Numbered from the stretch's first letter, positions 9,173 through 49,008 are shown. The stretch is DNA of 64,000 bases from Escherichia coli (GCA_902500125.1 GCA_902500125.1_4132.1); one strand, 5' to 3'. Translations and numbers: made by a program. The notes: generated by a model not told the origin, from the letters alone.

Positions 9173-9288
<116 letters not shown>

Positions 9289-9292
9289 AAAT

Positions 9293-9394
<102 letters not shown>

Positions 9395-9399
9395 AAACC

Positions 9400-9560
<161 letters not shown>

Positions 9561-9564
<4 letters not shown>

Positions 9565-9721
9565 CACATGAAGAATGGATGAATGACATTAATTTTAGAT
9601 ATTCGGGTATCGGTAGATGGCTAAAGTATCATTGGGAATTCATTTCAGAGCCACATATGTATGATAAACTTATCAACGATCCAGCATATGAAATGTACTT
9701 AATTGAACTACTGGTACGAAT

Positions 9722-9725
<4 letters not shown>
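9561..9725 (+). CDS. MTHEEWM-family mini-protein (54 aa)
   Basis: own translation; ATGA overlap with previous paralog; near-duplicate of 9400. Confidence 0.5.
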
Positions 9726-9894
<169 letters not shown>

Positions 9895-9897
9895 AAG

Positions 9898-10311
<414 letters not shown>

Positions 10312-10368
10312 CTAAATAATTCAGTACTGAGGATATTAATATGTTTAAAGATGAACGTCCAGATTTGT

Positions 10369-10406
<38 letters not shown>

Positions 10407-10414
10407 GAATTCCA

Positions 10415-10750
10415 CAATCAGACGTATATGGTGTAAGTTACGTCGATGCAATCCAGAACAAGATCTCTGGTACTCTAGGAAGTGGTGAATGTTAACCTAG
10501 ACGGGTTTGATAATTGGACGATAGGCAATTATTACTTGACTAGCAGGTTTAAACTAGAGGTGACAGTCCTTCATCAAACTGGAAAACCGGATGGACTTTT
10601 ATTTAAAAGGGTAAGGCGTGGAAATATGTTTACAGAAGTTGCTTTTAGTAGCCTGTACGCCCCACGTCAAGGTAGCCGAAAGGTAAGTTAAAACGGGTGG
10701 TTATAAAGCTGAATTGACAGCGACGTTTAAAAGCGTCACCATCCATTTTT
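10415..10750 (+). ncRNA. candidate structured ncRNA of unknown class
   Basis: ~330 nt between promoter and T8 run; GC-richer than flanks; GNRA-like CCGAAAGG hairpin; only ORF has no convincing start. Confidence 0.35.
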
Positions 10751-10769
10751 TTTAATTAAAGTTGGTGAT

Positions 10770-11159
<390 letters not shown>

Positions 11160-11184
11160 TTTTCAGTACTGATATAATTAATTT

Positions 11185-11421
<237 letters not shown>

Positions 11422-11428
11422 CTAAATC

Positions 11429-11733
11429 GGGCCATTAGCTCACGGTGGTTAGAGCAAACGACTCATCGACAATGGTGACTTTCATCAGTAATGGTGATTG
11501 AAAAACTGGATGAATTCAGGGAAATCTTAACACGTAATGGTGATGACAATCCTGAGCCAAGCCCAATAAGCGTATTGGGAAGGTGCAGAGACTAGATGGT
11601 ACAGTACGATCTTACTGTGTAATACATCATTAGCGTCCGGCATCCCTATGGGATGATGATATAGTCCGTACTATAGTGAAAACTATAGATTATACGAATC
11701 GTTAGGTACTGTGTTCGACTCACAGATGGCTCA
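11429..11733 (+). tRNA. tRNA with CAT anticodon (Met or Ile2) interrupted by group I intron
   Basis: 5' half GGGCCAT-TA-GCTC..GAGC-A-AACGA-CTCAT; 3' half AA-TCGTT-AGGTA-CTGTG-TTCGACT-CACAG-ATGGCTC-A; all four stems pair only after removing ~230 nt from the anticodon loop. Confidence 0.7.
11467..11696 (+). ncRNA. group I intron in tRNA anticodon loop (no ORF)
   Basis: follows exon U, ends in G; core-like elements AATTCAGGGAAA (P), AATCCTGAGC (Q), CAGAGACTA (R), GATATAGTCC (S) with complementary P4/P7 strands. Confidence 0.65.
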
Positions 11734-11752
11734 CAAACTTTGAAATAAAATA

Positions 11753-12457
11753 ATGAAAATAAAATTAGAATATCCATACAGTAATGATTGGGAGAATGGG
11801 TATATACAGATAAACCCTGAAGGTAGAAGAACTGTAATACTTTATAATTCTCCAACTGATAGAAGCAGTACTCAATATGCCAGATATCTATTAGCAGTAC
11901 AAGAAGGTAGATATTTAACTGAGTCTGAAGAAGCAGACCACATTGATAATGATTTCACAAATGATGATTTGTCAAATTTGCAAATACTTCATGTTGATGA
12001 ACATCGTTATAAAACACATAAGAATGGTGTGCAAGCACGATATGATTCATTTGTATGTGCTTGTTGTAATATGGAATTTACCCGTAGGCATACTAAAGTG
12101 AAATCATATACAAAATATTGTAGTGTTGAGTGTTCACAAAAAATGGTCAAGCCTCCTTCTAATACAAAGGGTGGTGAAACATCTGTTGATTATGAAAAGG
12201 TAAAAGAATATATTAACCAAGGTTTATTAGATACTGAAATTGCTAAAATAATGAATATTAGTTCAGGTTCAGTACTGAATTATAGAACCAAAAATAATAT
12301 ACCATCTAAGAAATTTGCAAACGTAAAACGTTTAGAAGATAACATAGAAGATATCAAACAACGTTTGAATAATGGTGAGAAAAAAGTTAGTATATATGAA
12401 AGTTATGGTGCTTCCAAAAATGTGTTTGCTAGATTTTTGAAAAGACATGGCTTATAA
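11753..12457 (+). CDS. HNH homing endonuclease-like protein
   Basis: track ORF; EADHIDNDFTNDDLSNLQILHVDEHRYKTH HNH-type motif plus Cys-rich KYCSVECS; immediately downstream of intron-containing tRNA. Confidence 0.65.
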   Translation: MKIKLEYPYSNDWENGYIQINPEGRRTVILYNSPTDRSSTQYARYLLAVQEGRYLTESEEADHIDNDFTNDDLSNLQILHVDEHRYKTHKNGVQARYDSFVCACCNMEFTRRHTKVKSYTKYCSVECSQKMVKPPSNTKGGETSVDYEKVKEYINQGLLDTEIAKIMNISSGSVLNYRTKNNIPSKKFANVKRLEDNIEDIKQRLNNGEKKVSIYESYGASKNVFARFLKRHGL

Positions 12458-12465
12458 ATAATTAT

Positions 12466-12538
12466 GACTCTGTAGCACAATAGGTGGTGCGATTAACTGT
12501 TAATTAATTGGTTGGGGATTCGAGTTCCTCCAGAGTCG
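12466..12538 (+). tRNA. tRNA-Asn (anticodon GTT)
   Basis: acceptor GACTCTG/CAGAGTC, D-stem GCAC/GTGC, anticodon stem ATTAA/TTAAT with loop CTGTTAA, T-loop TTCGAGT. Confidence 0.8.
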
Positions 12539-12560
12539 CAAAAAACAACGAGAGGTATAC

Positions 12561-12818
<258 letters not shown>

Positions 12819-12826
12819 GAATTTAA

Positions 12827-13228
12827 ATGAAAAAGAATGACTTGATCAAAATGCTTCAAGAGATTGACGGCAATCCAGAGATTGTTATTTGGAATGGATA
12901 TGTCGATGATTATATGAACATCGAAAAAGGCTTGACTAAAATCACTCTAGTCAAAGAAACTGAACAGTTCCTTCTGGAAGCATTAGTGCACGAATGGTGC
13001 AAACGTAACAATACATTCGACATTCCAGAAGATCAACGAACTAAGATTGCAGAACAAGCTAAAAAACTTCATAAGAAACGTGAATACGATTTCCAGAACC
13101 CACATGTTACTGAAGACGAATTCAATCACTGGTACGGTAAAAAGAAATTGACAAAGTATGTCCTTTCACCTAAACTACGTGGTAAGACTTCACTTGGTGT
13201 ATTCAACGCCGCAGACTTAAACTACTAG
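12827..13228 (+). CDS. hypothetical protein (paralog of 13241..13456)
   Basis: track ORF; N-terminus similar to next ORF (DLIKxLQ..PE..I...DDY). Confidence 0.55.
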   Translation: MKKNDLIKMLQEIDGNPEIVIWNGYVDDYMNIEKGLTKITLVKETEQFLLEALVHEWCKRNNTFDIPEDQRTKIAEQAKKLHKKREYDFQNPHVTEDEFNHWYGKKKLTKYVLSPKLRGKTSLGVFNAADLNY

Positions 13229-13237
13229 CGGGTATTA

Positions 13238-13642
<405 letters not shown>

Positions 13643-13661
13643 AGAGGTACTTCGAGTATGC

Positions 13662-13787
<126 letters not shown>

Positions 13788-13789
13788 TA

Positions 13790-13876
<87 letters not shown>

Positions 13877-13931
13877 GACTGCCAAACAGCTTGAAGTACT
13901 TTGTAGTGCTGCACCTATGCCGACACTTGGC

Positions 13932-14041
<110 letters not shown>

Positions 14042-14045
14042 ATCT

Positions 14046-14116
14046 GGTTGATTAGTTAAATGGTATAACACGGATCTTGTAAGTCTGAGTCATTAGTTCG
14101 ATTCTAATATTGACCA
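14046..14116 (+). tRNA. tRNA-Thr (anticodon TGT)
   Basis: acceptor GGTTGAT/ATTGACC (two G-U), D-stem GTTA/TAAC, anticodon stem CGGAT/GTCTG with loop CTTGTAA, T-arm ATTAG-TTCGATT-CTAAT. Confidence 0.65.
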
Positions 14117-14181
14117 CAAATATATTCTTAGAAATAACATTTTTCTTGAAAATAAATACTCCATACTATATGGAGAACTAT

Positions 14182-29978: not shown

Positions 29979-30229
29979 TGAAATATATCGTAGCAGTACT
30001 CGTCGCATTTCTACTCACTGCATGTGATGCTTCTACCAAAGAACGTACAAGTGATTTTGTTCTACCTGCTGAATTAAAAGAAGCAGGGTGTAAGATTTAT
30101 CGTATGCAACAAGATGGTGCTGGTGCGACTTTGTACACTGTGTACTGTCCTAATGCAAACACCAGTACTGGATACACTAGCGGAAAAACACGAATCAACA
30201 CTTCAGTGATTAATGGAGTACAACAATGA
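29978..30229 (+). CDS. putative lipoprotein
   Basis: track ORF; signal peptide with lipobox LLTAC (MKYIVAVLVAFLLTAC|DAS). Confidence 0.6.
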   Translation: MKYIVAVLVAFLLTACDASTKERTSDFVLPAELKEAGCKIYRMQQDGAGATLYTVYCPNANTSTGYTSGKTRINTSVINGVQQ

Positions 30230-35093: not shown

Positions 35094-35285
35094 ATGTTGA
35101 TTTATCAAAGTGATAATATTCGTGTTATGCAGCATCCCTACTTACAAATCTTTGATGTGCAGCAGTATATGGAAGGTGATGACCCAAGAACCTATGGTCG
35201 TAAGTATGATTACTTCACTGTAAAGCAGTGTAATAATATTAACGAAGTACGACAATTAGTTCAAGAACTTCAAAACAAAGGTTGA
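35094..35285 (+). CDS. hypothetical small protein
   Basis: track ORF 35040..35285 trimmed to ATG after AAGGA RBS. Confidence 0.45.
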   Translation: MLIYQSDNIRVMQHPYLQIFDVQQYMEGDDPRTYGRKYDYFTVKQCNNINEVRQLVQELQNKG

Positions 35286-35310
35286 CTTCGGTCAGCCTTT
35301 TTTGTTATAA
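35280..35310 (+). terminator. terminator hairpin GGTTGACTTCGGTCAGCC plus T6, overlapping a promoter (TTGACT in stem, TATAAT 18 bp downstream)
   Basis: hairpin, T-run and hexamers read directly; module recurs 5 times in window. Confidence 0.6.
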
Positions 35311-35339
35311 TTCTCTTAATAAATTAGAGGATTTTAATT

Positions 35340-35780
35340 ATGTATGTATATCGTTTTGAACTTAAATTTAGTTACATTGAACCTAACTTAGATCCTGCAC
35401 GAACTGTAGGTCCGTTTGCACGGTATTCAACCAGATACAGTACTAAAAATGGATTTGACCGTTTGCTTATGACTACACCTTCTCAATTCCAACCTGAACC
35501 AACTGAGGATGGGATCTATTCAATCAAAAGTGGATGGGTATTTGGCTGTCAAAGTTTGAAAGATTTGTTCAGATTCTTCACTATGGACTTAGGTAAATTG
35601 CATCGTGCTGGGTTTGCTATATCTGTATATGAAGTTCCAGACCACCATGTAGACATTGGTCGTAATCAGGTTCAGTACTATTGCGGTAGTGCTAAATTAG
35701 TTCGTATCATGTCAGTTAAGGAAGCAAAGGATGAGTTCCGACAAAGTAAAAGAGAAACACATGAGGTAATATATGGATAA
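35340..35780 (+). CDS. hypothetical protein
   Basis: track ORF; RBS GAGGA. Confidence 0.55.
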   Translation: MYVYRFELKFSYIEPNLDPARTVGPFARYSTRYSTKNGFDRLLMTTPSQFQPEPTEDGIYSIKSGWVFGCQSLKDLFRFFTMDLGKLHRAGFAISVYEVPDHHVDIGRNQVQYYCGSAKLVRIMSVKEAKDEFRQSKRETHEVIYG

Positions 35781-36117
35781 AACTCAAATAGAATTAAAGA
35801 AATTTGTTTCATTCTATCTTCCTGATGACCCACGTAATTCACAAAAAGATATTGAATATTATAATATCCTATCTAAACAGTTAATGAGAAAGTTTCAACA
35901 GTGTTTAACTATATTCAATACAGATGGAAGACGTAGATACCGAATCGTTTCAATGAATGATGAAAACGCAAATTTCTTTGATTACGATGTAGTTTTTAGA
36001 GCATATAATGATGATCGTATAAAATTAAATTATGATCAAATTATACTTGACCTGAATGTTATATGTGTTATAATCACTCACGTAGCCGAACTTAATGGTT
36101 TTAAAGAATGGTATTGA
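35773..36117 (+). CDS. hypothetical protein
   Basis: track ORF. Confidence 0.5.
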   Translation: MDKTQIELKKFVSFYLPDDPRNSQKDIEYYNILSKQLMRKFQQCLTIFNTDGRRRYRIVSMNDENANFFDYDVVFRAYNDDRIKLNYDQIILDLNVICVIITHVAELNGFKEWY

Positions 36118-36131
36118 ATAGAGGATAACAT

Positions 36132-36398
36132 ATGAAGCTTAAATTACAATATAATGGATTTACTTTACGTAATGATACTGAATTTATTAATCGTTCTCCT
36201 GGTGCTGAACTGTTTTTACGAGAGATGAACATTCCTTTCATCATTACTACAGTGGGCGACCGTGAAGTTCTACAATATGCAGAGCATCCGATTATTGATG
36301 TTCCTTGGTACTCTGAGCATATGTACATGGATATGGCACGTCGCTACAACTGTAAGTTCGTAGTTGAAGGTGATAAAATTACAGTCGAATTTAAATAA
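36132..36398 (+). CDS. hypothetical protein
   Basis: track ORF; RBS GAGGATAA. Confidence 0.55.
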   Translation: MKLKLQYNGFTLRNDTEFINRSPGAELFLREMNIPFIITTVGDREVLQYAEHPIIDVPWYSEHMYMDMARRYNCKFVVEGDKITVEFK

Positions 36399-36409
36399 GG
36401 TAAATTAAA

Positions 36410-36703
36410 ATGATCAGTACTTCAGTTAATGAAAGCATCGTCGCTGACGTAGAAATGGTTAAAGAATGTGCAGATGAAACTCTTCGTGATATGTACATTA
36501 ATGATTTAATTACTGAATACGGTAGTCGTGGTGTACACGAATTTATTCGTTTAAGTGGAGAGTTGATGAAAAATCGAATTCGTATGAAGCTTAACGTACA
36601 TCCAAAAGCATGGGCATTTACATTAAAATACGCAGAAGATATTGTGAATTTGCGTCGAACTGAAGTATATGAACGTTTACACAATGGTATGTTAGATAAA
36701 TGA
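36410..36703 (+). CDS. hypothetical protein
   Basis: track ORF. Confidence 0.5.
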   Translation: MISTSVNESIVADVEMVKECADETLRDMYINDLITEYGSRGVHEFIRLSGELMKNRIRMKLNVHPKAWAFTLKYAEDIVNLRRTEVYERLHNGMLDK

Positions 36704-36755
36704 TTGTAAAATAGGAATTCTTAAATGAATTCCTTTTTGTTTATAAGGTATAGTA

Positions 36756-36977
36756 ATGAAATATATAGTACTTGTACTGATATTATTCAGTACTGTTGTA
36801 AGTGCTAAACAAAAAGAATATATTAAATGTATAAATTATGAAGAGAAATATGTTGAAACATATAAAAAAAGTATAATTAAAAACGTTTCGATTACTAACA
36901 GAGCAACAATCATTGTACTTAAAAATGGGTTAATTATGCTATATAAACCACACGTTAAATGTGAAATTATTAATTGA
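36756..36977 (+). CDS. small secreted protein
   Basis: track ORF; signal-peptide-like N-terminus ..TVVSA-KQK. Confidence 0.5.
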   Translation: MKYIVLVLILFSTVVSAKQKEYIKCINYEEKYVETYKKSIIKNVSITNRATIIVLKNGLIMLYKPHVKCEIIN

Positions 36978-36984
36978 GGAAATT

Positions 36985-37557
36985 ATGAATCGTAAAGGTC
37001 GTTTTAAAGTATCAAAAAAGAACAAAAGTTCTAGGTTTAAACCTATTGTTTTAACAGTTAAATCTAACAAAGATTTAACTGCACTTAGTAAAAAGATAAT
37101 TTCATCTAAGATTGAAGTATCATACGTAAATTCATTAAAATATATGAATGTCAAACCACTGGACCAACTCATTTCACTTATATTTGAACGTAATGATTTT
37201 GAGATATCAGTAGATGATTATAGAGCCTATAATGCTGGTTTCATTAATGTTACTTGTAATAAAAAACTAACTGAGTTGGAAAATTTGTCATGTATAATAA
37301 ATCTAGATAAAGGTGTTGTGAAGTACCATTTTGTACATTTCACTAATATCAATAATGGAATGGGTGTACAATCCAGACCTATAGTGCCTACGTGTGATGT
37401 TACTAAATTAGCAAAGCTCAATGATGAAGAATATTTTCAAGAAAGCATTGTAACTGAGCATTTAGATGATATAATAGCTACTTACAAAGAATGCATATGG
37501 GTGTTGAATGCTATAAAACCTAAATTGTGTTTAATGAATATTGTTCGTGATTTATGA
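36985..37557 (+). CDS. hypothetical protein, EExFQxSTV-motif family
   Basis: track ORF 36961..37557 trimmed to ATG after GAGGAAA; NDEEYFQESIVTEH motif. Confidence 0.55.
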   Translation: MNRKGRFKVSKKNKSSRFKPIVLTVKSNKDLTALSKKIISSKIEVSYVNSLKYMNVKPLDQLISLIFERNDFEISVDDYRAYNAGFINVTCNKKLTELENLSCIINLDKGVVKYHFVHFTNINNGMGVQSRPIVPTCDVTKLAKLNDEEYFQESIVTEHLDDIIATYKECIWVLNAIKPKLCLMNIVRDL

Positions 37558-37570
37558 ATGGGGAATCGTA

Positions 37571-38014
37571 ATGAGTTGGGTAAATGTTAATAGTATTGAA
37601 CTTAACGAACAAGATATTTTTGCATTTGTAAATTTAACTAATAACACAGTACTAAAAGGGCGTTTGTTCAGTGCGAGTGATGGATATAAATGGATCTCTT
37701 TGATGGATGATAGTGGTGTGATTTATAATGTAATGCAATTACCCCAATGGGTATATAGTAACACTGCCGACGATGTTCTTGCCGCAGTTATGCGTGAGTT
37801 TGAAAAACTCCCAGGTGGTGATATCAAAAACAAAGTTTTTAATGCAGAACGGAAAAATTATACAGCACAGCAGTTGGAATCCCTTGCCATTGCTGCTTAT
37901 CAAGCTGCTATTAAGAAGCCAGAGTGCGTTATTCTTAAGTATGTACCAGACTTAAAACTTACGTTGGAAGACATGGATGCATTCATTTTTACATCTGAAC
38001 TTGATCAGTACTAA
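37571..38014 (+). CDS. hypothetical protein
   Basis: track ORF 37541..38014 trimmed to ATG (MSWVNVN). Confidence 0.5.
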   Translation: MSWVNVNSIELNEQDIFAFVNLTNNTVLKGRLFSASDGYKWISLMDDSGVIYNVMQLPQWVYSNTADDVLAAVMREFEKLPGGDIKNKVFNAERKNYTAQQLESLAIAAYQAAIKKPECVILKYVPDLKLTLEDMDAFIFTSELDQY

Positions 38015-38129
38015 TTTAACTTTGGGACAACCATTCTTATTATGATATAATGTTTTATGTCATTCGATATAAATGACAACGGAACTATAAATATTATAGT
38101 AAAATTTATCTCTTATAGGAGTTATAAAA

Positions 38130-38513
38130 ATGGTTGGTAAATGGAATAAGAAAGATCCATCACATGATGTTGATATTTCTGGTCTAGACAATGCACATAA
38201 GCACAAGTATCTAGATTCACTAGGTCTTCTAAAACCAGACCAAAGTCTTGCACATGATCGTCCATCCCGTGAAAAAGCATTTAGCCTAGAATCACTAGGC
38301 CATGAGCTTAATCGTGTGTTTGAGGATCACCCAATCTATGTACGTGATATTATCGAGAAACTTAAAGTAACTCCTAAAGAGCACTTTAAAGCAACTGTAC
38401 ACTCTGCATTCCGTGCATTACATGAATCTCTAAAGAAAACTCACAATCTTCGTAAAATTCATGATGAAATCGTGAATGCAATCGAAAGTGAAAAACATAA
38501 GTTCAAGAAGTAA
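38130..38513 (+). CDS. hypothetical protein (paralogous to N-terminal region of 39859..41118)
   Basis: track ORF; shared YLDSLGLL / IIEKLKVTPKE motifs with 39859 ORF. Confidence 0.55.
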   Translation: MVGKWNKKDPSHDVDISGLDNAHKHKYLDSLGLLKPDQSLAHDRPSREKAFSLESLGHELNRVFEDHPIYVRDIIEKLKVTPKEHFKATVHSAFRALHESLKKTHNLRKIHDEIVNAIESEKHKFKK

Positions 38514-38520
38514 TAAAAAT

Positions 38521-38553
38521 GGTTGACTAAGGTCAGCCCTTTGTTGTATCATA
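38521..38553 (+). terminator. terminator/promoter module (GGTTGACTAAGGTCAGCC variant)
   Basis: hairpin plus T-rich tail; -10-like TATCAT 18 bp after TTGACT. Confidence 0.5.
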
Positions 38554-38703
38554 ACTTCTCAATATAACTGAGGTATCATATATGCAAGGTTTGAAATTTG
38601 TAGTTGCTGCCCTAATCGCTGCTGTTGTAGTGGGTACAGTATGTTATTCAATTGACACCTATATCAATACACCTAGTGTTGAACAAACCAAATAAGGGAT
38701 ATC

Positions 38704-38967
38704 ATGGCTGAAACATTATCACTATATGCGTTAGTACTGTTATTTGTCGGATTTCTTCCCGCACTCATTACAGCCATTCGTGTTGTTAAACATGAAGCTG
38801 CATTGATTGTATGTAGTATTGGGTCGAACATTCTATTGTATTTCTTTTTGACAAATACTATTGTACTGTTTGCTTTCTTTATCATGATTCTGTGGGTACT
38901 TGTAATTCTCGGATTCTTCATTTGGTCATTGGTTGATCCTAAGAAAAAATCAGGAGAAGTGAAATGA
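38704..38967 (+). CDS. multi-pass small membrane protein
   Basis: track ORF. Confidence 0.5.
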   Translation: MAETLSLYALVLLFVGFLPALITAIRVVKHEAALIVCSIGSNILLYFFLTNTIVLFAFFIMILWVLVILGFFIWSLVDPKKKSGEVK

Positions 38968-39260
38968 AATTAATTATAGCAATGATAATGTGTTTGGCTT
39001 TCCCTGTACTGGCTACTCCTAATCTGGACTGCACACTGTTGCGTTCAGATGGTGACACACTTGAAATCAACACATATGAACTCTTTGGTCCAAGTGTAGT
39101 GGAGAATGAAACCACCTACAATTTCAAAGCTATTGACTTTGAAGGTAATGTTCCAGTACTAACTACAATGACTATTGACAAAACTACTTTACTCGGACGA
39201 ATCACCACACAACGCGGAGAAAGTAAAACATTCACAGCGAAAGCTGACTGTAACTACTAA
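38964..39260 (+). CDS. small secreted protein
   Basis: track ORF; signal-peptide-like N-terminus ..FPVLA-TPN. Confidence 0.5.
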   Translation: MKLIIAMIMCLAFPVLATPNLDCTLLRSDGDTLEINTYELFGPSVVENETTYNFKAIDFEGNVPVLTTMTIDKTTLLGRITTQRGESKTFTAKADCNY

Positions 39261-39282
39261 TGGTATAGTACAGTGAAAATAG

Positions 39283-39312
39283 GGTTGACTTCGGTCAACC
39301 TTTATATATAAT
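39283..39312 (+). terminator. terminator/promoter module (GGTTGACTTCGGTCAACC)
   Basis: hairpin with TTGACT in stem; TATAAT 16 bp downstream. Confidence 0.55.
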
Positions 39313-39883
39313 GGAAGAAATAAACATGGAACGTTGGAAATTAATTCCTGATTATGACTATTCAATTTCTGATCATGGAAGAGTAAGAAACGAACAAACT
39401 GGATATATAAGTTGTGGATTTAAAAATAAAGATGGGTATGTGAAGGTCGATTTGTATCGCAATTCTGTGAAAAATAGAAAGGCGATTCATCGACTAGTAG
39501 CTGAAGCATTTTTACCACCACCCACACAGAAACAGTTACAGTGGGCGAGTAGAACAAAGAAAAAAGTTGTTCACATAAACCATAAAGATTGTAATAGAAG
39601 TAACAATCACTATTTGAATTTGGAATGGAACACAGCATCTGAAAACGTACTATATTCTTATTCACATGGTAACGCAACAACTAATCGTGGTGCTGCTGTG
39701 TTGACATGGGAAATTGTAAGAGAAATAAGAAAAGATTATAATGATAATTATAATGATGTGATAGAATATGCACGAGAAAATTGTAATAAATACCGTGTAT
39801 GTAAAAAAAACAATACGTCGTATTTTATACAATCAAACATGGATAGAGGATTAAAAATATGCCACAAGATAATGGGGATATGA
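39311..39883 (+). CDS. HNH homing endonuclease-like protein
   Basis: track ORF; N-terminal W..IPDYDYSISDHGRVRN and AIHRLVAEAF motifs typical of phage HNH/NUMOD-type endonucleases (recall-based). Confidence 0.55.
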   Translation: MEEINMERWKLIPDYDYSISDHGRVRNEQTGYISCGFKNKDGYVKVDLYRNSVKNRKAIHRLVAEAFLPPPTQKQLQWASRTKKKVVHINHKDCNRSNNHYLNLEWNTASENVLYSYSHGNATTNRGAAVLTWEIVREIRKDYNDNYNDVIEYARENCNKYRVCKKNNTSYFIQSNMDRGLKICHKIMGI

Positions 39884-41118
39884 AACATCGTAATGGTGGA
39901 CTAGTACAACACTCGGATAAATGGGCCGACCGAAATCGTCGCAAAAATAGTTATCAAGCAGGACAAGGTTCACGTGGTTCCAGAAACCAAGGAACGGGAC
40001 TTGCTGGTAAGGCAAACGCAGAAGCAGGTGAAGTTAAGAGTACTGAGAACATGACTGAGCTAGAAAAGCTACGTTATGTTAATTCATTGGGACTTCTTAA
40101 TGCTACACAAAAACAACGTCTAGCTGATATGGAACGTGAAGAAAAAGAAAAGTCTGCTCCTGCGAAAGAAGAACCAAAACAAGAAGCACCAAAGGCGGTT
40201 AACCCTGTCAAAGAACTGTCTGATAAGTTAGGTAAGATTTTTGCTAATAAACCACAACTTATCCAAGGTATTGTGAAAGAATTGCAATCTGTACCTAAAG
40301 AAGAATTAAAAGTCAAAGCACAAGCTGTACTTGATGCAATGAGTGGAAATACCAGTACTGAACCAACTGAAGTATTCAGTACTATAATGCGTGCACTTGA
40401 AGGTACGCAACAAGGTGATGTGCCTGCACAAGAGGAAGTAAGTCTTGAAAGCGTACTTAAAACATTTGATAGTATTGGTAAAGAAGACCGTGCTAATGCT
40501 CAACAAGTTAAGAATGTACTAGCTAAGTTAGAAAACCGTCTGGAAGGTAAAGACGATAAGATTAAATTAGTATCTGATGCAGTTAACGATGCACTTAAAT
40601 CTTATGTACAAGGTGAAAAGAGTCGTTTTGTAACTGCAATGGATGCTGCATTCAATACTATGAAAAAGTATGAAGCTGATCATGGTGAGAAGGTTACACG
40701 AGATGGTTATCTGATGCGTGATGATGAAGAAGGTGCAGTAGAACAGAATGATGTTCATTCAGACGAAGAAATTGATGACATGGAAGCTGAACTGTCACAA
40801 GACCGCCAAATGACTGAAAAATCCCATAACGAACTACAGAAATTAATGCAATGGGTTGCAGATGTTGGTGAAAAAGCTGGTGCTGATAAGAAGAGTATAA
40901 ACCGAAATCTTAGTTGGATTAAAGATAAAGTTGGTAACAACGCTCGTAAACTACAAAAAGCGTGGACTGATGTAGTGAATGGTGCTGTTGACATTGATGT
41001 TGAATCCGGTGAGGCATATGATTATGCATTGACTACACTTGATGACTCTTTCCGTGATTACGAAAATGGAAATGTAACTCCTTGGGAAAAGGATATCATG
41101 AGCAAATACGGTAAATGA
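39859..41118 (+). CDS. hypothetical charged protein (419 aa)
   Basis: track ORF; Gly/Ser/Arg-rich N-terminus then K/E-rich region; paralogous segment to 38130 ORF. Confidence 0.6.
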   Translation: MPQDNGDMKHRNGGLVQHSDKWADRNRRKNSYQAGQGSRGSRNQGTGLAGKANAEAGEVKSTENMTELEKLRYVNSLGLLNATQKQRLADMEREEKEKSAPAKEEPKQEAPKAVNPVKELSDKLGKIFANKPQLIQGIVKELQSVPKEELKVKAQAVLDAMSGNTSTEPTEVFSTIMRALEGTQQGDVPAQEEVSLESVLKTFDSIGKEDRANAQQVKNVLAKLENRLEGKDDKIKLVSDAVNDALKSYVQGEKSRFVTAMDAAFNTMKKYEADHGEKVTRDGYLMRDDEEGAVEQNDVHSDEEIDDMEAELSQDRQMTEKSHNELQKLMQWVADVGEKAGADKKSINRNLSWIKDKVGNNARKLQKAWTDVVNGAVDIDVESGEAYDYALTTLDDSFRDYENGNVTPWEKDIMSKYGK

Positions 41119-41127
41119 TAAAACAAA

Positions 41128-41158
41128 AGGTTGACTTCGGTCAGCCTTTTTTGTTATG
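41128..41158 (+). terminator. terminator/promoter module (GGTTGACTTCGGTCAGCC plus T6)
   Basis: identical hairpin to 35280 copy; TATGAT 18 bp after TTGACT. Confidence 0.6.
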
Positions 41159-41188
41159 ATGTTGGTATTAACTACAGAGGATAAAGTA

Positions 41189-41830
41189 ATGACTAAGCAA
41201 GACATATTCAAAACTTTAATTGACATTTTGCGTCCATCAAAAACTCGTTGTGCGATGGAGTTTGATATTCCTTATGCTGAACGCGTAATCTTTCCACAAG
41301 TTAAAGCTGCTGGACTTACTTTGCTTGGAATGGGGATGTACTCTGTAGTAGTTGAACATAAAAACTATCCTGGACGTGCATTTAAAGTAACCACTTCACG
41401 CTGGGATGGTTTTCGTGCTTATGCAAAGTACTGCATTGAAAACGCAGGAACCAAGTTTCTTCCAGTGATCTACAGTGCCAACGAACAAGGAAACTTTGGA
41501 TGGTATGAGATGGACAAGTACTATCCTATAATTAAACAAAAAAATAATTATGATGACTTTGTTAGTACTAAAATTGGAGATTTATATTCTTATGCACATG
41601 CTGGTCAGTACGCTACTTCAGTGAATGATATGCGTGGAAATTCTGAAGAGATTGCTATTGCAACGGTCGCTGCTAACATCATGAAAGAGTTTCACGGGCG
41701 TTTTGTACCAGACATTCATTCAAGTAATGTGATGATGGATAAAGATGGCAATGTATTCATTACTGATCCTCTTTCGTGTGATGTACGTAGAGAAATACCA
41801 GTTACTGAAGAAGATCCAGTTTTTTATTGA
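41189..41830 (+). CDS. protein-kinase-like protein (atypical)
   Basis: track ORF 41156..41830 trimmed to ATG after AGAGGATAA; Gly-rich loop LGMGMYSVV, AFKV lysine, catalytic-loop-like DIHSSNVMMDKDGNVFITDP. Confidence 0.45.
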   Translation: MTKQDIFKTLIDILRPSKTRCAMEFDIPYAERVIFPQVKAAGLTLLGMGMYSVVVEHKNYPGRAFKVTTSRWDGFRAYAKYCIENAGTKFLPVIYSANEQGNFGWYEMDKYYPIIKQKNNYDDFVSTKIGDLYSYAHAGQYATSVNDMRGNSEEIAIATVAANIMKEFHGRFVPDIHSSNVMMDKDGNVFITDPLSCDVRREIPVTEEDPVFY

Positions 41831-41891
41831 CAGAACTGATGTTCTGGTGTATTCTTAATAAACCATAAAAATTGCGGTAAAGGATAAAATC

Positions 41892-42173
41892 ATGCGTTCA
41901 TTTGAAAACTTAATAGGTAAGCATCTTTTATCTGAAATTGATGCAGACGTTAAAGAATTATCCAAATCAAAAAGTTACATTCATTTGGATGAACTGTTTA
42001 TTAAGTACGGTGAGATTGGTTTTAAGTCATTATTTGTTTTTACTATGAAAGTACATAGTTTAAAGTACTTCGATTTGAGTTCTAAAGATGGTGAACCGAA
42101 TCTATATTACATGTATTACCTTAAGAACAAAGATGAAGCTAATACATTACTCTCTGAATATATATTGGGGTAA
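41892..42173 (+). CDS. hypothetical protein
   Basis: track ORF; RBS AAAGGATAA. Confidence 0.55.
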   Translation: MRSFENLIGKHLLSEIDADVKELSKSKSYIHLDELFIKYGEIGFKSLFVFTMKVHSLKYFDLSSKDGEPNLYYMYYLKNKDEANTLLSEYILG

Positions 42174-42175
42174 AA

Positions 42176-42514
42176 ATGGAACAATATTTTGAATTAATAA
42201 ACAAAGTATCATTTTATGTAGTATCTTTGGTTTGGGTGTATTATATGTTTTGCTATATTATTGCATTCTTCCGATATACTACTTTATATGAACGTATCTA
42301 CTATGATGCCCCAATTTCATTCTTGATGTTTTGTGCATGTACGTGGGGAATATTAGAAGTACTGATATGTGGGTATAGTACTGATGAATTAAATCTGGTA
42401 TCGGTGTTGACTGGGTTTTCATTTGTTGTTATGATAGCTGCCGTTCCAGTATGGTTGTTCTTTGGACTAGTTCATCGCATTGATATATGGCGTTCTAATA
42501 TCCCTGAAAAGTAA
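42176..42514 (+). CDS. 3-TM small membrane protein, paralog family A
   Basis: track ORF; 3 hydrophobic helices; C-terminal basic tail ..RSNIPEK. Confidence 0.55.
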   Translation: MEQYFELINKVSFYVVSLVWVYYMFCYIIAFFRYTTLYERIYYDAPISFLMFCACTWGILEVLICGYSTDELNLVSVLTGFSFVVMIAAVPVWLFFGLVHRIDIWRSNIPEK

Positions 42515-42517
42515 GGA

Positions 42518-42865
42518 TTGGAAATGATTTATTACACTAACATGTTTGCCTATGCTGTTGCTTGCATTTACATTGTTTACTTCTTATTCGGTGGAGTACT
42601 GTGCTTCTTTAAGTACAAAACGTTGTTCAACCGAATGTACCCAAATCATCCAATTGTAGTTGTACTTTTGATTCTTTCAGTTTCTCAAATAATCGTTGAA
42701 ACTACAATGGGTATCAGTAGTGTACATTATAGTTTTGGCACTATAGTAATTATTACTATGCTTATTGCATACATTTTAGTACTTGGATATGGTATCTTTG
42801 GTAATATTGGTATGAAAATGTATCATCGAATTAAAACATTACGTGATAATCTACCGGAGCGTTGA
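42518..42865 (+). CDS. 3-TM small membrane protein, paralog family A
   Basis: track ORF; C-terminal ..LRDNLPER. Confidence 0.55.
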   Translation: MEMIYYTNMFAYAVACIYIVYFLFGGVLCFFKYKTLFNRMYPNHPIVVVLLILSVSQIIVETTMGISSVHYSFGTIVIITMLIAYILVLGYGIFGNIGMKMYHRIKTLRDNLPER

Positions 42866-42866
42866 T

Positions 42867-43211
42867 ATGTATAATTTGAACCTAATCTCATATATTATAA
42901 CAACACTGTTTACATTCTATGCCTTTGTTGGTATAATCCTACTGTACTTTAAATTTTATAAAGTGTTTAACCGTTTCTATCCTTCAATGGAGAATGAGTT
43001 TTTCTTTGTGTTGTACGTAGGTTACACATTAATGGCTACATGTTTCACTGTAGCCGATGGTGTCATCGGCATTAAAACTGATTCCCCAAATGGTAGTACG
43101 CTGGTTGCATTTATTCTTACTGGATTCCTTGCAACTTATATTGCCTTCATTACAACATGGTCAGTGGTTGAATTTCTCTTGCGACTACGAAAGAATATGC
43201 CGAATCGATAG
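42867..43211 (+). CDS. 3-TM small membrane protein, paralog family A
   Basis: track ORF 42843..43211 trimmed to ATG (MYNLNL); C-terminal ..LRKNMPNR. Confidence 0.55.
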   Translation: MYNLNLISYIITTLFTFYAFVGIILLYFKFYKVFNRFYPSMENEFFFVLYVGYTLMATCFTVADGVIGIKTDSPNGSTLVAFILTGFLATYIAFITTWSVVEFLLRLRKNMPNR

Positions 43212-43220
43212 GAGACATAT

Positions 43221-43475
43221 ATGTTTGCGTTGCGTAATAAAAACACTAAAGAATTATTATGTATTGATACCGTATGGGATTGTGCGGGATCAACTACAGT
43301 TCTTGAAGAAGGAACTGGATATTGCGTGTTTGTTGTTCATGATAGGAATGAACTCGAATTATTACTTGCTGAGTTCAATGCTGGTGGTAATCCTAACAGT
43401 ACTGAATACCCTGAGATTATCAATCCAGCACCACCAGGCTCTTATGAAATTCTACAACTGTGGGAGTTGAAGTAA
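43221..43475 (+). CDS. hypothetical small protein
   Basis: track ORF; RBS AGGAGA. Confidence 0.55.
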   Translation: MFALRNKNTKELLCIDTVWDCAGSTTVLEEGTGYCVFVVHDRNELELLLAEFNAGGNPNSTEYPEIINPAPPGSYEILQLWELK

Positions 43476-43855
43476 TGCGTCAAATGCACAAAGTAACCGA
43501 GCTAAACAAGCGTCTGGTTAAACAATCAATGTTCGAGGATAAAGAGTCTTATTATAACTTTAAACGTGCTGTAGAGGCTGCTATCCACATTCAGAAGCTT
43601 AAAGAACGTGGTTGTATTATTCTGGAAAATGGGTCGGAAGTTGTAACGGATGACTTTAGTGTAGCGTTTGATGTTTCACCTGACGGGACGCTATCAATGC
43701 CCCGCTTAGGAACTGGAAACATGACTGTTTGGGTTGGCTTCACTATGGGGAATGTACCTGGTACTGTGTACGTAGATGATGCGGAATTGAAAGACAGTTT
43801 CAAAAACTTATCTTATCTTGAACCACAATACGCACATGAAATGAATTTATTTTGA
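43475..43855 (+). CDS. hypothetical protein
   Basis: track ORF 43460..43855 trimmed to ATG (MRQMHK). Confidence 0.5.
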   Translation: MRQMHKVTELNKRLVKQSMFEDKESYYNFKRAVEAAIHIQKLKERGCIILENGSEVVTDDFSVAFDVSPDGTLSMPRLGTGNMTVWVGFTMGNVPGTVYVDDAELKDSFKNLSYLEPQYAHEMNLF

Positions 43856-43857
43856 GT

Positions 43858-43885
43858 TGACAAACACATTCAGTACTGTATAATG
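43858..43885 (+). promoter_or_regulatory. sigma70-type promoter TTGACAAACACATTCAGTACTGTATAATG
   Basis: consensus hexamers, TG-extended -10, CAGTACTG in spacer. Confidence 0.6.
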
Positions 43886-43931
43886 CTTATCAAGGGGATG
43901 AACTTCTCATCCCTACAATCGAGGAACTACC

Positions 43932-44486
43932 ATGATTACTTTTAAGAAAACTGCTAACCACATCCATGAAATCTACATTAACGGTCACAAAGCTGGCCTT
44001 CTTCGTTTACTCGCCCATCATCCTGATGTTACCGTATCTGATAATGAACCTAAAGATTGGCGTGTATTTTTCTTTGGAAAGTACAGTGATTTTCAAGTAT
44101 CAAACCTGAAGAACATTCGTTCAGTATGCACGTTAACTGAAATTAAAGAAAAGTTAGAAAAAGCATTGAAAACTAATCCAGATGGTGTTCTTCCACCTGA
44201 TAACTTTGTAGAGAAAGGTTATGCATTAGCTCATTTCAAAGATGGTACTATTCAATCTATCAGTACTGAATATGAATATCAATGGACTGAGTACTTCACT
44301 TATGGATCGCGTAATACATTGATGGCTTCACGTAGTAAATTGGAAGAAGTACTGACTCGTATGAATGAACGCGAACGTCAATTTTATGACAAACCAGAAA
44401 TGTGGAGTTCAACTTACATTGACCGTATTGACTATGTTATTATGACTCCAATCTTTGACACTGCTTACTATGATTCTTTGAAATAA
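43932..44486 (+). CDS. hypothetical protein
   Basis: track ORF; RBS GAGGAA. Confidence 0.55.
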   Translation: MITFKKTANHIHEIYINGHKAGLLRLLAHHPDVTVSDNEPKDWRVFFFGKYSDFQVSNLKNIRSVCTLTEIKEKLEKALKTNPDGVLPPDNFVEKGYALAHFKDGTIQSISTEYEYQWTEYFTYGSRNTLMASRSKLEEVLTRMNERERQFYDKPEMWSSTYIDRIDYVIMTPIFDTAYYDSLK

Positions 44487-44702
44487 GGATAACTTATATG
44501 AAACTACGTACTCGTAATCGACTGATGGATGCACTGTACCATGAACAGCTTTCACTGAATGAAGTGAAGCGACAGTTAATGTACACATATCTGTTACCCG
44601 ATCGCATTGCAAAACAACGTGCTAAAGAATTGCTGAAAGAAGCAATCGAGTACTGGGAATCTGATTCGTACTAATTGTCACGTTAATTAAGTGAGGCGAT
44701 AA

Positions 44703-44954
44703 ATGAAAATTTTATTAGTTCTAATACTACTAATTGTTTTACCATTTACGTTAGTATCCCCTGAACTTGCATGGAATGTGTTTGTGTACTTAGTATGTAC
44801 TATTGTAGTAAATGGTATCTTGTTCTTAGTTCTATTCATAAATGGAATAGGACACGGTGGAGGATGGACCAGTACTGCTGATATTGTACATAAAACCACT
44901 ATGTCTTTATTTGTAATGTGGAATTTATTCTGGACTTGGTTTGTGTTCTTCTAA
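44703..44954 (+). CDS. small membrane protein
   Basis: track ORF; hydrophobic throughout. Confidence 0.5.
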   Translation: MKILLVLILLIVLPFTLVSPELAWNVFVYLVCTIVVNGILFLVLFINGIGHGGGWTSTADIVHKTTMSLFVMWNLFWTWFVFF

Positions 44955-44962
44955 TTAAAAAT

Positions 44963-45334
44963 ATGAATATAGATTTGAAAGGTGCAACCCGAACTGTCAT
45001 ACTCATTGGGGAATATGCTATCAAGATTCCAACCTTTAAAAGTTGGAAGCTATTCTTAACAGGGATGATAGCTAACCTCAATGAACGTTCGTGGATGCAG
45101 TACTCCAATCGTAGTGATAGTAGTATCTGTCCTACGTTGTGGTCATCATGTACTGGACTAGTAACTGTACAGAAACGTTGTAAGCCAGTGCAACATAGGG
45201 GTTTATTTTGGGTGGAGTTGTGTGCTTTAGCATTGAATTCAGAGTTAAGTACTGACTTCTTCTATTCAGATGCGAAGCCAGAAAACTTTGGGTATCTGTG
45301 TGGTAAGTTGGTTAAACTTGATTATGGAGATTAA
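44963..45334 (+). CDS. mini protein-kinase-like protein (atypical)
   Basis: track ORF 44918..45334 trimmed to ATG (MNIDLKG); GATRTVILIGEYAIKIP, SDAKPENFGY and KLDYGD resemble kinase G-loop/VAIK, catalytic loop and DFG. Confidence 0.4.
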   Translation: MNIDLKGATRTVILIGEYAIKIPTFKSWKLFLTGMIANLNERSWMQYSNRSDSSICPTLWSSCTGLVTVQKRCKPVQHRGLFWVELCALALNSELSTDFFYSDAKPENFGYLCGKLVKLDYGD

Positions 45335-45335
45335 T

Positions 45336-45605
45336 ATGTACGCATTGTATAATAAAGAAAAGAAACGATTTGCTAAGGTTGAAATTTCGATTGATACATT
45401 TGACATGTTGGAGTACTGTATTGTAACGGACTTATATGCTAACTTGTATTACGTTCTTGATGACGTATCAGTACTGCAACGATTGCTTGAGAATTCCAAA
45501 AGTCAATGCCAGGACATCCATGATGGTTCATCTTATGAAACACCTGAGTGTCCCCACGGGCAACTCGATGGGTATGAGATTGTTAAGTTGGGAATTGTTG
45601 AGTAA
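45336..45605 (+). CDS. hypothetical protein
   Basis: track ORF 45270..45605 trimmed to ATG after GGAGA RBS. Confidence 0.5.
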   Translation: MYALYNKEKKRFAKVEISIDTFDMLEYCIVTDLYANLYYVLDDVSVLQRLLENSKSQCQDIHDGSSYETPECPHGQLDGYEIVKLGIVE

Positions 45606-45670
45606 AAGGTATTGACACCGTACTCATTTAACTGTATTATGTATGTACACCAACTAATGAGGAATCGGAA

Positions 45671-46030
45671 ATGGCATCTTTATCTGAAATCACTGAACTG
45701 AATCCACTGGTAATTAGTACTGTTCAACGCACCAAGACGTTTTACTTCCGTCCTGCTGATGGATGGAAACGTGGAATGAATGGTGACTATCGAGTACTGG
45801 AAGATTCGCTCATCGAGCGTATCAACTCTGAACTACAGAAGTATGAAGGTGTTAAAGTTGTCCGTTCAACTTCTCGTTATTTTGAGTACTACATTGAGTC
45901 TTCAACTGTAAATGAAAACTCATCATTCTCGGTGGATAACACTGATATTCTTCGCAATGCAGTTGGTTTGCTATGCAACATTGCAGAAGAAATGGGATTA
46001 ACTATCACCACAATGAGTGAGTTAGAATAG
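45671..46030 (+). CDS. hypothetical protein
   Basis: track ORF; RBS GAGGAA. Confidence 0.55.
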   Translation: MASLSEITELNPLVISTVQRTKTFYFRPADGWKRGMNGDYRVLEDSLIERINSELQKYEGVKVVRSTSRYFEYYIESSTVNENSSFSVDNTDILRNAVGLLCNIAEEMGLTITTMSELE

Positions 46031-46041
46031 AATAAAAAAAG

Positions 46042-46072
46042 GGTTGACTTAGGTCGGCCCTTTTGCTATTAT
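46042..46072 (+). terminator. terminator/promoter module (GGTTGACTTAGGTCGGCC variant)
   Basis: hairpin plus T-rich tail; TATTAT 17 bp after TTGACT. Confidence 0.5.
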
Positions 46073-46100
46073 ATCTATATCGAAACGAAGGAGACAAACC

Positions 46101-48645: not shown

Positions 48646-49008
48646 ATGAACGGGATAGAATTATCTTTCGTTGGTCAATTACTAGTAATGGCGTATACAT
48701 TTATCTTCTCACTGAATGCATTCGTGTGCATTGGGAAGTACTTCCATAAGCGACCATTATCAAATATATATGATGTAATCCAAAAGAGATATAGTCCAGC
48801 ATATACTGTGTTGGGTACAGTATTCAATTTTGGTTTTATTGTATTAATAATTGGACTGTTCACATCCTCTTTGAATACAATAACCTTCGGTCTTATGATA
48901 TGTTCATTGGTATTAGCCGTAATTATATGTTGTTTAGTACTGCACCTTGTGGTACTATTGTATATAAAGATCTCTGAAATCCACCAACGTTTGGGTATGA
49001 GGAAATAA
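48646..49008 (+). CDS. 3-TM small membrane protein, paralog family B
   Basis: track ORF 48583..49008 trimmed to ATG (MNGIELSF). Confidence 0.5.
   Translation: MNGIELSFVGQLLVMAYTFIFSLNAFVCIGKYFHKRPLSNIYDVIQKRYSPAYTVLGTVFNFGFIVLIIGLFTSSLNTITFGLMICSLVLAVIICCLVLHLVVLLYIKISEIHQRLGMRK

Follow-up and report, generated by a model that had tools for sequence, protein, structure and literature searches.

The stretch of DNA considered here (64,000 nucleotides from Escherichia coli, GCA_902500125.1; hereafter the window) belongs to an Asteriusvirus, a RaK2-like jumbo coliphage with 98.5% identity to phage phAPEC6, and carries five copies of a module of about 35 bases in which a hairpin is merged with a host-type start signal. 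It is rather probable that each copy is a composite control element of early genes, namely an intrinsic (Rho-independent) terminator with a built-in promoter for the host sigma70 polymerase; the predicted dual function is well supported by comparison. An earlier note on this DNA had proposed that the same ~30 bp may end one transcript and start the next, and the comparative evidence on both halves of the element, presented below, speaks for this proposal; the idea was put forward as if new, whereas elements of this kind have already been described, the module being a compact form of the promoter/stem-loop cassettes of T4-like phages known as promoter-early stem-loops (PeSLs).

When the window was searched with the 18-mer GGTTGACTTCGGTCAGCC, allowing up to two mismatches, five copies were found, all on the + strand, at 35280 (no mismatch), 38521 (two), 39283 (one), 41129 (none) and 46042 (two); at up to three mismatches no further match was found across the 64 kb. 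The positions given in the earlier note were right for four of the copies, the remaining one having been placed at 41128, one base away from its actual position. In dinucleotide-preserving shuffles the chance expectation for such copies is 0.01, and none of 100 shuffles reached five; a chance origin of the repeats is ruled out by these figures. The five copies lie within 11 kb, the other 53 kb of the window containing none.

Each copy is intergenic, between a stop codon and the next gene, and follows the same order: an A-run, a stem of 7–12 bp with TTGAC in its 5' arm, a four-nucleotide loop (UUCG in three copies, UAAG and UUAG in one each), a T-run, often TGn, and a −10 hexamer. The upstream open reading frame (ORF) ends 7–22 nt before the core in four copies, and at 35280 its TGA stop lies inside TTGAC. 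Of the T-runs, those of the copies at 35280 and 41129 (both TTTTTT) are strong and that of the copy at 39283 (TTTATATAT) is weak, those at 46042 (CTTTTG) and 38521 (CTTTGTTG) being moderate. In each of the five copies TTGACT lies in the 5' arm, separated by 18, 18, 16, 18 and 17 bp from a TANNNT hexamer (TATAAT, TATCAT, TATAAT, TATGAT and TATTAT in order of position), and three of them have the TG of an extended −10 at −15/−14; in four of the five, the −10 is followed at 28, 29, 28 and 28 nt by an ATG, with GAGG or AAGGAG in between. The description from which the analysis started, that of a hairpin and T-run after a stop codon in five copies, with TTGACT in the stem and a TATAAT-like hexamer 16–18 bp further on, was thus borne out by the 18-mer search and by the reading of the sequence. 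The two predicted halves of each module are as follows.

35277–35303, + strand: module 1, predicted terminator; stem AAAGGTTGAC/GTCAGCCTTT, UUCG loop, run of six T; hairpin folding −14.1 kcal/mol (z −4.8); the TGA stop (35283–35285) of the upstream ORF 35094/35040–35285 lies inside TTGAC
35282–35311, + strand: module 1, predicted promoter; −35 TTGACT at 35282–35287, spacer 18, TGT, −10 TATAAT at 35306–35311; 11 of 12 sigma70 consensus matches, TG present; GAGG at 35327 within the 28 nt that lead to ATG 35340 (146-amino-acid ORF)
38521–38546, + strand: module 2, predicted terminator; stem GGTTGAC/GTCAGCC, loop UAAG, tail CTTTGTTG; hairpin folding −12.7 kcal/mol (z −3.4); upstream ORF ends at 38513
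38523–38552, + strand: module 2, predicted promoter; TTGACT, spacer 18, TATCAT; GAGG at 38570 within the 29 nt that lead to ATG 38582 (37-amino-acid ORF)
39281–39306, + strand: module 3, predicted terminator; stem AGGGTTGAC/GTCAACCTT with a perfectly palindromic core, UUCG loop, weak U-tract TTTATATAT; hairpin folding −12.1 kcal/mol (z −2.8)
39285–39312, + strand: module 3, predicted promoter; TTGACT, spacer 16, TATAAT; only 13 nt from the −10 to ATG at 39326 of an ORF for an HNH/NUMOD4 homing endonuclease (39326–39883)
41125–41152, + strand: module 4, predicted terminator; stem AAAAGGTTGAC/GTCAGCCTTTT, UUCG loop, run of six T; hairpin folding −15.2 kcal/mol (z −5.0); upstream ORF ends at 41118
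41131–41160, + strand: module 4, predicted promoter; TTGACT, spacer 18, TGT, TATGAT; GAGG at 41177 within the 28 nt that lead to ATG 41189 (gene whose homologue is annotated as a gp0.7-like kinase)
46037–46064, + strand: module 5, predicted terminator; stem AAAAGGGTTGAC/GTCGGCCCTTTT with two G·U pairs, loop UUAG, tail TTTTG; hairpin folding −17.5 kcal/mol (z −5.0); upstream ORF ends at 46030
46044–46072, + strand: module 5, predicted promoter; TTGACT, spacer 17, TGC, TATTAT; AAGGAG at 46088 within the 28 nt that lead to ATG 46101 (257-amino-acid ORF)

It may be observed that at 35283–35285 a stop codon, a −35 element and a terminator arm share the same bases.

Extended −10 sigma70 promoters with a proximal UP-like A-tract, both of E. 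coli and among the early promoters of T4, combine TTGACN, a spacer of 16–18 bp and TGnTAtaaT with an A-run near −40 to −45, and the modules have a similar layout, the TG being present in three of the five window copies; they differ in that −35 and spacer have, in addition, to pair with each other in the RNA transcribed from the upstream gene. The association of the hairpin with a −10 is specific to phages. For the exact 18-mer, 52 distinct copies from IMG/VR were compared: TANNNT is found at a spacer of 16–18 in 46, with TG at −15/−14 in 40 of these 46; at the other offsets between 11 and 69 it occurs in 0–4 copies each, and at none in more than three within 46 nt of the −35. As a control, bacterial genomes amounting to 596 Gb were searched and gave 50 occurrences of the same 18-mer; some 30 are inside GC-rich coding sequence, and 20 are followed by a T-run and resemble ordinary terminators. 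A −10 at the right spacing accompanies two of these 20 bacterial copies (none with TG) versus 45 of the 48 phage copies having hairpin and T-run (Fisher p = 1.8e-11), a contrast indicating that the −10 is not a by-product of the AT-rich DNA which follows terminators. In RaK2, a phage of a different genus, TTGAC is found in all copies (the search being seeded on TTGAC), the loops are ttcg, gaaa, ataa, ttat and tttg, and TGnTATTAT or TATAAT is constant at spacer 17.

The same figures bear on the possibility that the modules are terminators only, TTGAC and the TATAAT-like hexamer being the inherited baggage of a repeat duplicated in AT-rich DNA, with no initiation. This possibility, which we regard as improbable, agrees with the public annotations seen, in which the elements are labelled terminators alone (G17, GAP32, UE-S1 and the CBB terminator table), with the absence of an overall enrichment of sigma70-like matches in the region (103 found against 96.7 expected) and with the existence of a few family members devoid of a −10; on the other hand, it has to face the exact spacing of the −10 in 46 of 52 copies, compared to about one copy per other offset, the TG carried by 40 of them, the scarcity of a −10 after the bacterial terminator copies of the same hairpin (2 of 20), the constancy of TTGAC across several phage families in which loops, outer stem and flanks change, and the fixed distance of 28–29 nt between −10 and ATG. 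The frequency of the −10 at spacer 16–18 in phage as opposed to bacterial copies supports the promoter half proposed in the earlier note.

A further argument comes from the relatives of the window, where a motif CCCAYNGGGTGC...GTATCTAT lies about 33 nt after the −10 of plain TTGACA-N17-TATAAT promoters and of hairpin modules; since the distance is the same for the two kinds of element, both would start transcripts at the same relative point. The CCCAYNGGGTGC motif is absent from the window. In the relatives it is part of an element of its own, written as ...GGCAGATAAGCCG..(A/G)CCCAYNGGGTGC....GTATCTAT and then AGTACT, which stands ~33 nt after the −10 of many early promoters and is present in more than 40 distinct copies, having been seen in RaK2 (L004), GAP32 (L013), 121Q (L027), the 100–105 kb region of TH47 and the loci L018, L034, L041 and L054; some copies form convergent pairs, giving rise to long inverted repeats, and no Rfam match was obtained for the element, a candidate short non-coding RNA or promoter-proximal regulatory element. 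A hairpin promoter of the N4 type, serving a virion RNA polymerase, was also considered for the modules and is ruled out by their full sigma70 −35/−10 geometry and, moreover, because related phages are described as relying on the host polymerase (CBB and PA5oct papers).

As to the terminator half, the hairpin is the more stable on one strand: folding energies are −12.1 to −17.5 kcal/mol for the RNA of the + strand (z −2.8 to −5.0 versus shuffles) and −5.6 to −10.8 for that of the − strand. The variation of the stem was followed in a set of 113 distinct variants of the pattern TTGAC-N4-GTCRR (120 before filtering), collected from the window, four Asteriusvirus loci, the whole TH47 genome, RaK2, GAP32 and 39 IMG/VR loci; this pattern replaced a looser search, for any hairpin containing TTGA, which in TH47 yielded mostly noise. 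Over the nine innermost stem pairs of the 113 variants (1,017 cells, two of the nine pairs being limited by the search pattern to A or G on the 3' side), 866 are Watson-Crick, 144 G·U, one A·C and six other; at the four pairs left unconstrained by the pattern, 30 G·U are found versus one A·C. An A·C on the sense strand is a G·U on the opposite one. The loop is UUCG in 79 variants, the others including further UNCG and GNRA tetraloops, and compensatory changes are seen in the outer stem (GTGG/CCAT, GGGA/TCCC, GTAC/GTAC, GCGG/CCGC). Among the 52 IMG/VR copies of the exact core, 48 have at least four T in the six nucleotides after the stem and 44 have four to six A in the six nucleotides before it. 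The asymmetry between G·U and A·C, the loops, the compensatory changes and the T-runs argue that the hairpin is selected on the sense-strand RNA, which is the signature of an intrinsic terminator, and such a pairing signature is not expected of a DNA palindrome bound by a protein. The terminator half of the reading put forward in the earlier note finds its support here.

The window copies have, besides, what is usually looked for in intrinsic terminators, i.e., a GC-rich stem of at least 5 bp, a loop of 3–8 nt, a U-rich tract directly after it and a position downstream of a stop codon; the same elements are annotated as terminators on the basis of ARNold in G17, GAP32 and CBB, and terminator features with no stated method are present in the records of Munch and UE-S1, the latter marking one module as a terminator. 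It is quite improbable, in our opinion, that the hairpin is instead a stabiliser or processing site of the RNA 3' end, protecting the upstream mRNA from exonucleases or being cleaved by RNase III in read-through transcripts: the poor U-tracts of two copies would fit such a role, as would the pairing of A-run with U-run, which extends the stems and can compete with the part played by the U-tract in termination, but most copies show four to six T right after a GC-rich stem (at least four in six in 48 of 52), which is the canonical terminator geometry, and ARNold predicts terminators in several independent annotations.

The pairing data weigh likewise on the idea that the elements are promoters with a palindrome acting at the DNA level, as an operator or cruciform recognised by some regulator of the early promoters and with no part in termination. 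The overlap with the −35 is indeed a typical operator position, and another palindrome, CCAGTACTGG, is enriched in the window and is found in promoter spacers of the relatives, which suggests that DNA-level palindromic sites exist in the clade; nevertheless, 90% of the module copies are asymmetric as DNA and retain RNA pairing through G·U, with GTCAG as the 3' arm in 100 of 120 variants and GTCAA, the form with perfect symmetry, in 12. UNCG and GNRA loops stabilise RNA, a T-run always follows the hairpin, which directly follows a stop codon, and the identical hairpin is a plain terminator in bacteria, all of which makes this idea very unlikely. The palindrome CCAGTACTGG, in its own right, occurs 24 times in the window at up to one mismatch, versus 0.84 expected (e.g., at 30162–30171, 48935–48957 on the + strand and 49411–49388 on the − strand); it forms terminator-like hairpins in the window and sits in the spacers of plain TTGACA...TATAAT promoters in the relatives, and may be an operator or a second hairpin family.

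Several points weigh against a composite terminator and promoter. The weak U-tracts of the copies at 38521 and 39283 imply that termination there may be partial; in the latter copy the −10 is only 13 nt from the ATG, and the transcript would be nearly leaderless and devoid of a Shine-Dalgarno sequence. Some family members in the relatives, e.g., phAPEC6 L002:13049 and TH47 147270, have hairpin and T-run and no −10, and accordingly not all members can have the dual function. Many of the phage copies counted share ancestry and are thus not independent of one another, and gene conversion, by homogenising the copies within a genome, may inflate their apparent conservation; furthermore, the literature on Asteriusvirus, RaK2 and phAPEC6 yielded no transcript end mapping or reporter data for the modules or for any Asteriusvirus. 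That transcripts do end and begin at the modules, with whatever efficiency, and do so early in infection, is therefore something we infer from the anatomy and the comparisons given above.

If the modules do combine the two functions, their operation can be envisaged as follows. The polymerase coming from the upstream gene would transcribe the A-run, GG(G)TTGAC, UUCG, GTCAGCC(C) and the U-run, whereupon the hairpin would form and the transcript would be released within the U-run. On the duplex DNA the same parts would serve a second purpose: the A-run would occupy the position of the proximal UP subsite, TTGACT in the 5' arm would be the −35 hexamer, the 3' arm and the T-run would make up the 16–18 bp promoter spacer, and TGn with TAT(A/T)AT would be the extended −10; initiation of the new transcript would take place some 7 nt beyond the −10, giving a leader of ~21 nt that contains GAGG before the ATG. 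Since termination would take place inside the spacer, before the −10 is reached, the upstream polymerase could not occlude the promoter, and each small gene cassette would be insulated and separately driven; the insulation of cassettes suggested in the earlier note matches the published concept of PeSLs (PMC2839356). The near-universal G·U would keep the RNA hairpin and at the same time remove a second TTGAC from the antisense strand, leaving the DNA palindrome imperfect, and we suggest that antisense initiation and cruciform formation are thereby avoided. More speculatively, a polymerase set free within the spacer might begin again on the spot, from the promoter contained in the module, in a hand-off from terminator to promoter.

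The modules coincide with breakpoints between related genomes. In the window the module at 41129 has the left flank of the phAPEC6 module at L002:13049 and the right flank of that at L002:14134, and a cassette of three ORFs (~1.04–1.09 kb), present in phAPEC6, G17 and CRJP21, is missing at this point; of 35 genomes found when all phage records were searched, 33 are split within this module and two, UE-S1 and ph0011, have the arrangement of the window. The module at 46042 is the junction of a cassette difference of ~2.2 kb with respect to the relatives. A stretch of 1.3 kb absent from phAPEC6, G17 and CRJP21 is common to eight phages up to the hairpin of the module at 39283 and, from the T-run of this module onward, HNH gene included, to EC.P1 only. 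In the fourth difference, a cassette consisting of a module plus denV is absent from the window; here the junctions lie outside the modules, and the missing segment carries a module. Three of the four structural differences between window and relatives have therefore a junction in or at a module, and since the modules are the only direct repeats of that length noticed around the junctions, passive homologous recombination is sufficient for the pattern: as a side effect, direct repeats of 25–70 bp would be a substrate on which cassettes are added or removed between related phages.

That the repeats are kept mainly as recombination linkers for cassette exchange (through PeSL-style mini-circles, possibly with a specific protein), their transcription signals being secondary, would agree with these three junctions, with the same core being present in unrelated phage families and with the role proposed in the PeSL papers, but can hardly be held likely, as any direct repeat of at least 25 bp would recombine passively in phages with active recombination systems, strand-specific RNA constraints and an exact promoter geometry are unnecessary for recombination, and no association with a recombinase was seen, no test aimed at one having been made.

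Returning to the composite terminator and promoter, its closest known counterparts are the PeSLs of the T4-type phages RB49/phi1, PST/T4 and nt-1/KVP40 (Arbiol et al. 2010, PMC2839356; Comeau et al. 2014, PMC4122927), for which, in RB49/phi1, promoter and terminator activities have both been shown by lacZ fusions, five subclasses have been distinguished, one of them with the stem-loop overlapping the −35, and the formation of mini-circles by recombination between repeats has been described (PMC2839356). The modules resemble PeSLs in being an intergenic, near-consensus sigma70 early promoter with a terminator-type stem-loop, in the AT-rich DNA that precedes the −35 and the Shine-Dalgarno sequence and ATG that come after the promoter, in clustering in hyperplastic regions rich in small ORFans, in lying at indel and replacement breakpoints between sister phages, and in matching the subclass with the stem-loop over the −35. 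All the features of a PeSL that can be examined at the sequence level are present, with the exception of the T4-type carrier phage: the modules reside in a RaK2-like jumbo phage (Asteriusvirus) and PeSLs in T4-type Straboviridae, a difference that we treat as the taxonomic scope of the original description and not as a mechanistic criterion.

Other differences concern the architecture. In the modules the overlap is complete and stereotyped, the −35 being always the 5' arm and the U-run being part of the spacer, whereas the commonest positions of the stem-loop in the PeSLs of RB49/phi1 are between −35 and −10 or over the −10, and in those of PST and nt-1 it is described as immediately preceding the promoter. 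As to the stem, the modules have GGTTGAC/GTCAGCC, including a fixed G·U, and PeSLs have polyG/polyC. Two further sites in the window, both on the + strand, have a PeSL-like look and a different stem: TTGACA-17-TATTCT at 41827–41855, with a small hairpin (41831–41846) in the spacer, and, at 36713–36769, the hairpin AGGAATTC...GAATTCCT with a T-run (annotated as a terminator in G17), followed by a weak promoter match. Canonical Rho-independent terminators have in common with the modules the GC-rich stem, the tetraloop and the U-run right after a stop codon, to which the phage modules add TGn and a −10 at fixed spacing and a leader of fixed length. A genome-wide coupling of promoters and terminators, with initiation and termination sites of adjacent units close together or coupled, has been reported for bacteria (bioRxiv 10.64898/2026.08.19.745784); the modules are a repeated, sequence-stereotyped phage element.

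In RaK2-like phages the modules are currently annotated as terminators only, and no description of the dual nature of the hairpins was found in the literature and records on this group. The CBB paper has the hairpins in its terminator table only and lists other sequences as RpoD-like promoters; promoters and terminators are listed separately in the annotation of GAP32 and treated apart in the PA5oct paper; in the papers on RaK2, phAPEC6 and fEgEco12 promoters or terminators are not mentioned, and no overlapping element of the module type was found in the Kayvirus transcriptome paper.

The distribution of the element is wide. The complete genome of TH47 has about 12 copies, on one strand and all within 90–147 kb of its 352 kb, and a 61-nt module query found matches in 106 phage records, which span the entire RaK2-like clade (Asteriusvirus, Alcyoneusvirus, GAP32, CBB, Eneladusvirus of Erwinia and Yersinia, and Salmonella Munch and 7t3). 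The T4-like Aeromonas phage 65, Vibrio phages of ~250 kb, Vequintavirinae and Brochothrix phage A9 also have the exact core together with a −10. In particular, the identical 18-mer with a −10 of the TGnTATTAT type was observed in L040 and L046 (Brochothrix phage A9, 127 kb, with a Gram-positive host), L015 (Aeromonas phage 65) and L016 (Pectobacterium phage POP15); as a plain terminator-like element it occurs in genomes of Acinetobacter, Exiguobacterium, Vibrio and Bacteroidetes. All the bases of the core are functionally determined (−35, its complement, the cUUCGg tetraloop and the GC clamp), which makes convergence plausible. The occurrence of the core in lineages as distant as RaK2-like jumbo phages, T4-like Straboviridae, Vequintavirinae and the Gram-positive Brochothrix phage A9 can also be read, tentatively and against our own expectation, as something beyond convergence alone, GGTTGAC-UUCG-GTCAGCC being a portable junction that would move with the downstream gene between unrelated phage lineages, i.e., an integrase-free, integron-like docking site for early-gene cassettes.

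As to its surroundings, the region is 96–98.5% identical to Asteriusvirus jumbo coliphages such as phAPEC6, 121Q, PBECO4 and G17. The genes flanking the modules are all on the + strand and mostly small ORFs; a Pfam search of nine ORFs neighbouring the modules gave a family above cut-off in one only, the HNH/NUMOD4 homing endonuclease at 39326–39883, six having no match and one more a sub-threshold match only. This free-standing gene (+ strand) sits between the hairpin of the module at 39283 and an SMC-like gene at 39859–41118, whose first ~50 nt have diverged from the relatives, as expected near a homing site. In phAPEC6, G17 and 121Q the homologue of the gene that follows the module at 41129 bears the annotation of a T7 gp0.7-like protein kinase. 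The intergenic gaps of the same 14 kb also hold sigma70 promoter matches with no hairpin, some of them perfect:

33509: sigma70 promoter match with no hairpin, 12 of 12 matches
43857: sigma70 promoter match with no hairpin, 12 of 12 matches
45612: sigma70 promoter match with no hairpin

Given this density of plain consensus promoters, the five modules would be a subclass within an array of putative early promoters.

Rfam, searched at gathering thresholds with the window and a TH47 segment, gave no match for the modules; its matches in the window are only tRNAs and a group I intron, all away from them. The tRNA cluster (9199–14117, + strand) comprises Ser(tga), Ser(gct), Asn(gtt) and Thr(tgt) according to ARAGORN, with a borderline Rfam tRNA match at 9293–9371; inside it a full-length group I catalytic intron (RF00028, 99 bits) is found at 11374–11688 (+ strand), just 3' of the tRNA-Ser(gct) gene at 11185–11274.

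In the layout of about 35 bp described here every part of the terminator would double as a part of the promoter, and the G·U would keep the hairpin on one strand only; such a layout would be a ready-made compact insulator for synthetic biology. The element extends modular shuffling of the PeSL type beyond T4-like phages and explains three of the four structural differences of the region. If the modules do have both functions, the early regions of RaK2-like genomes would be arrays of units of one or a few genes, each insulated and separately driven, and the way in which early expression and cassette turnover are read in these genomes of 350 kb would change.

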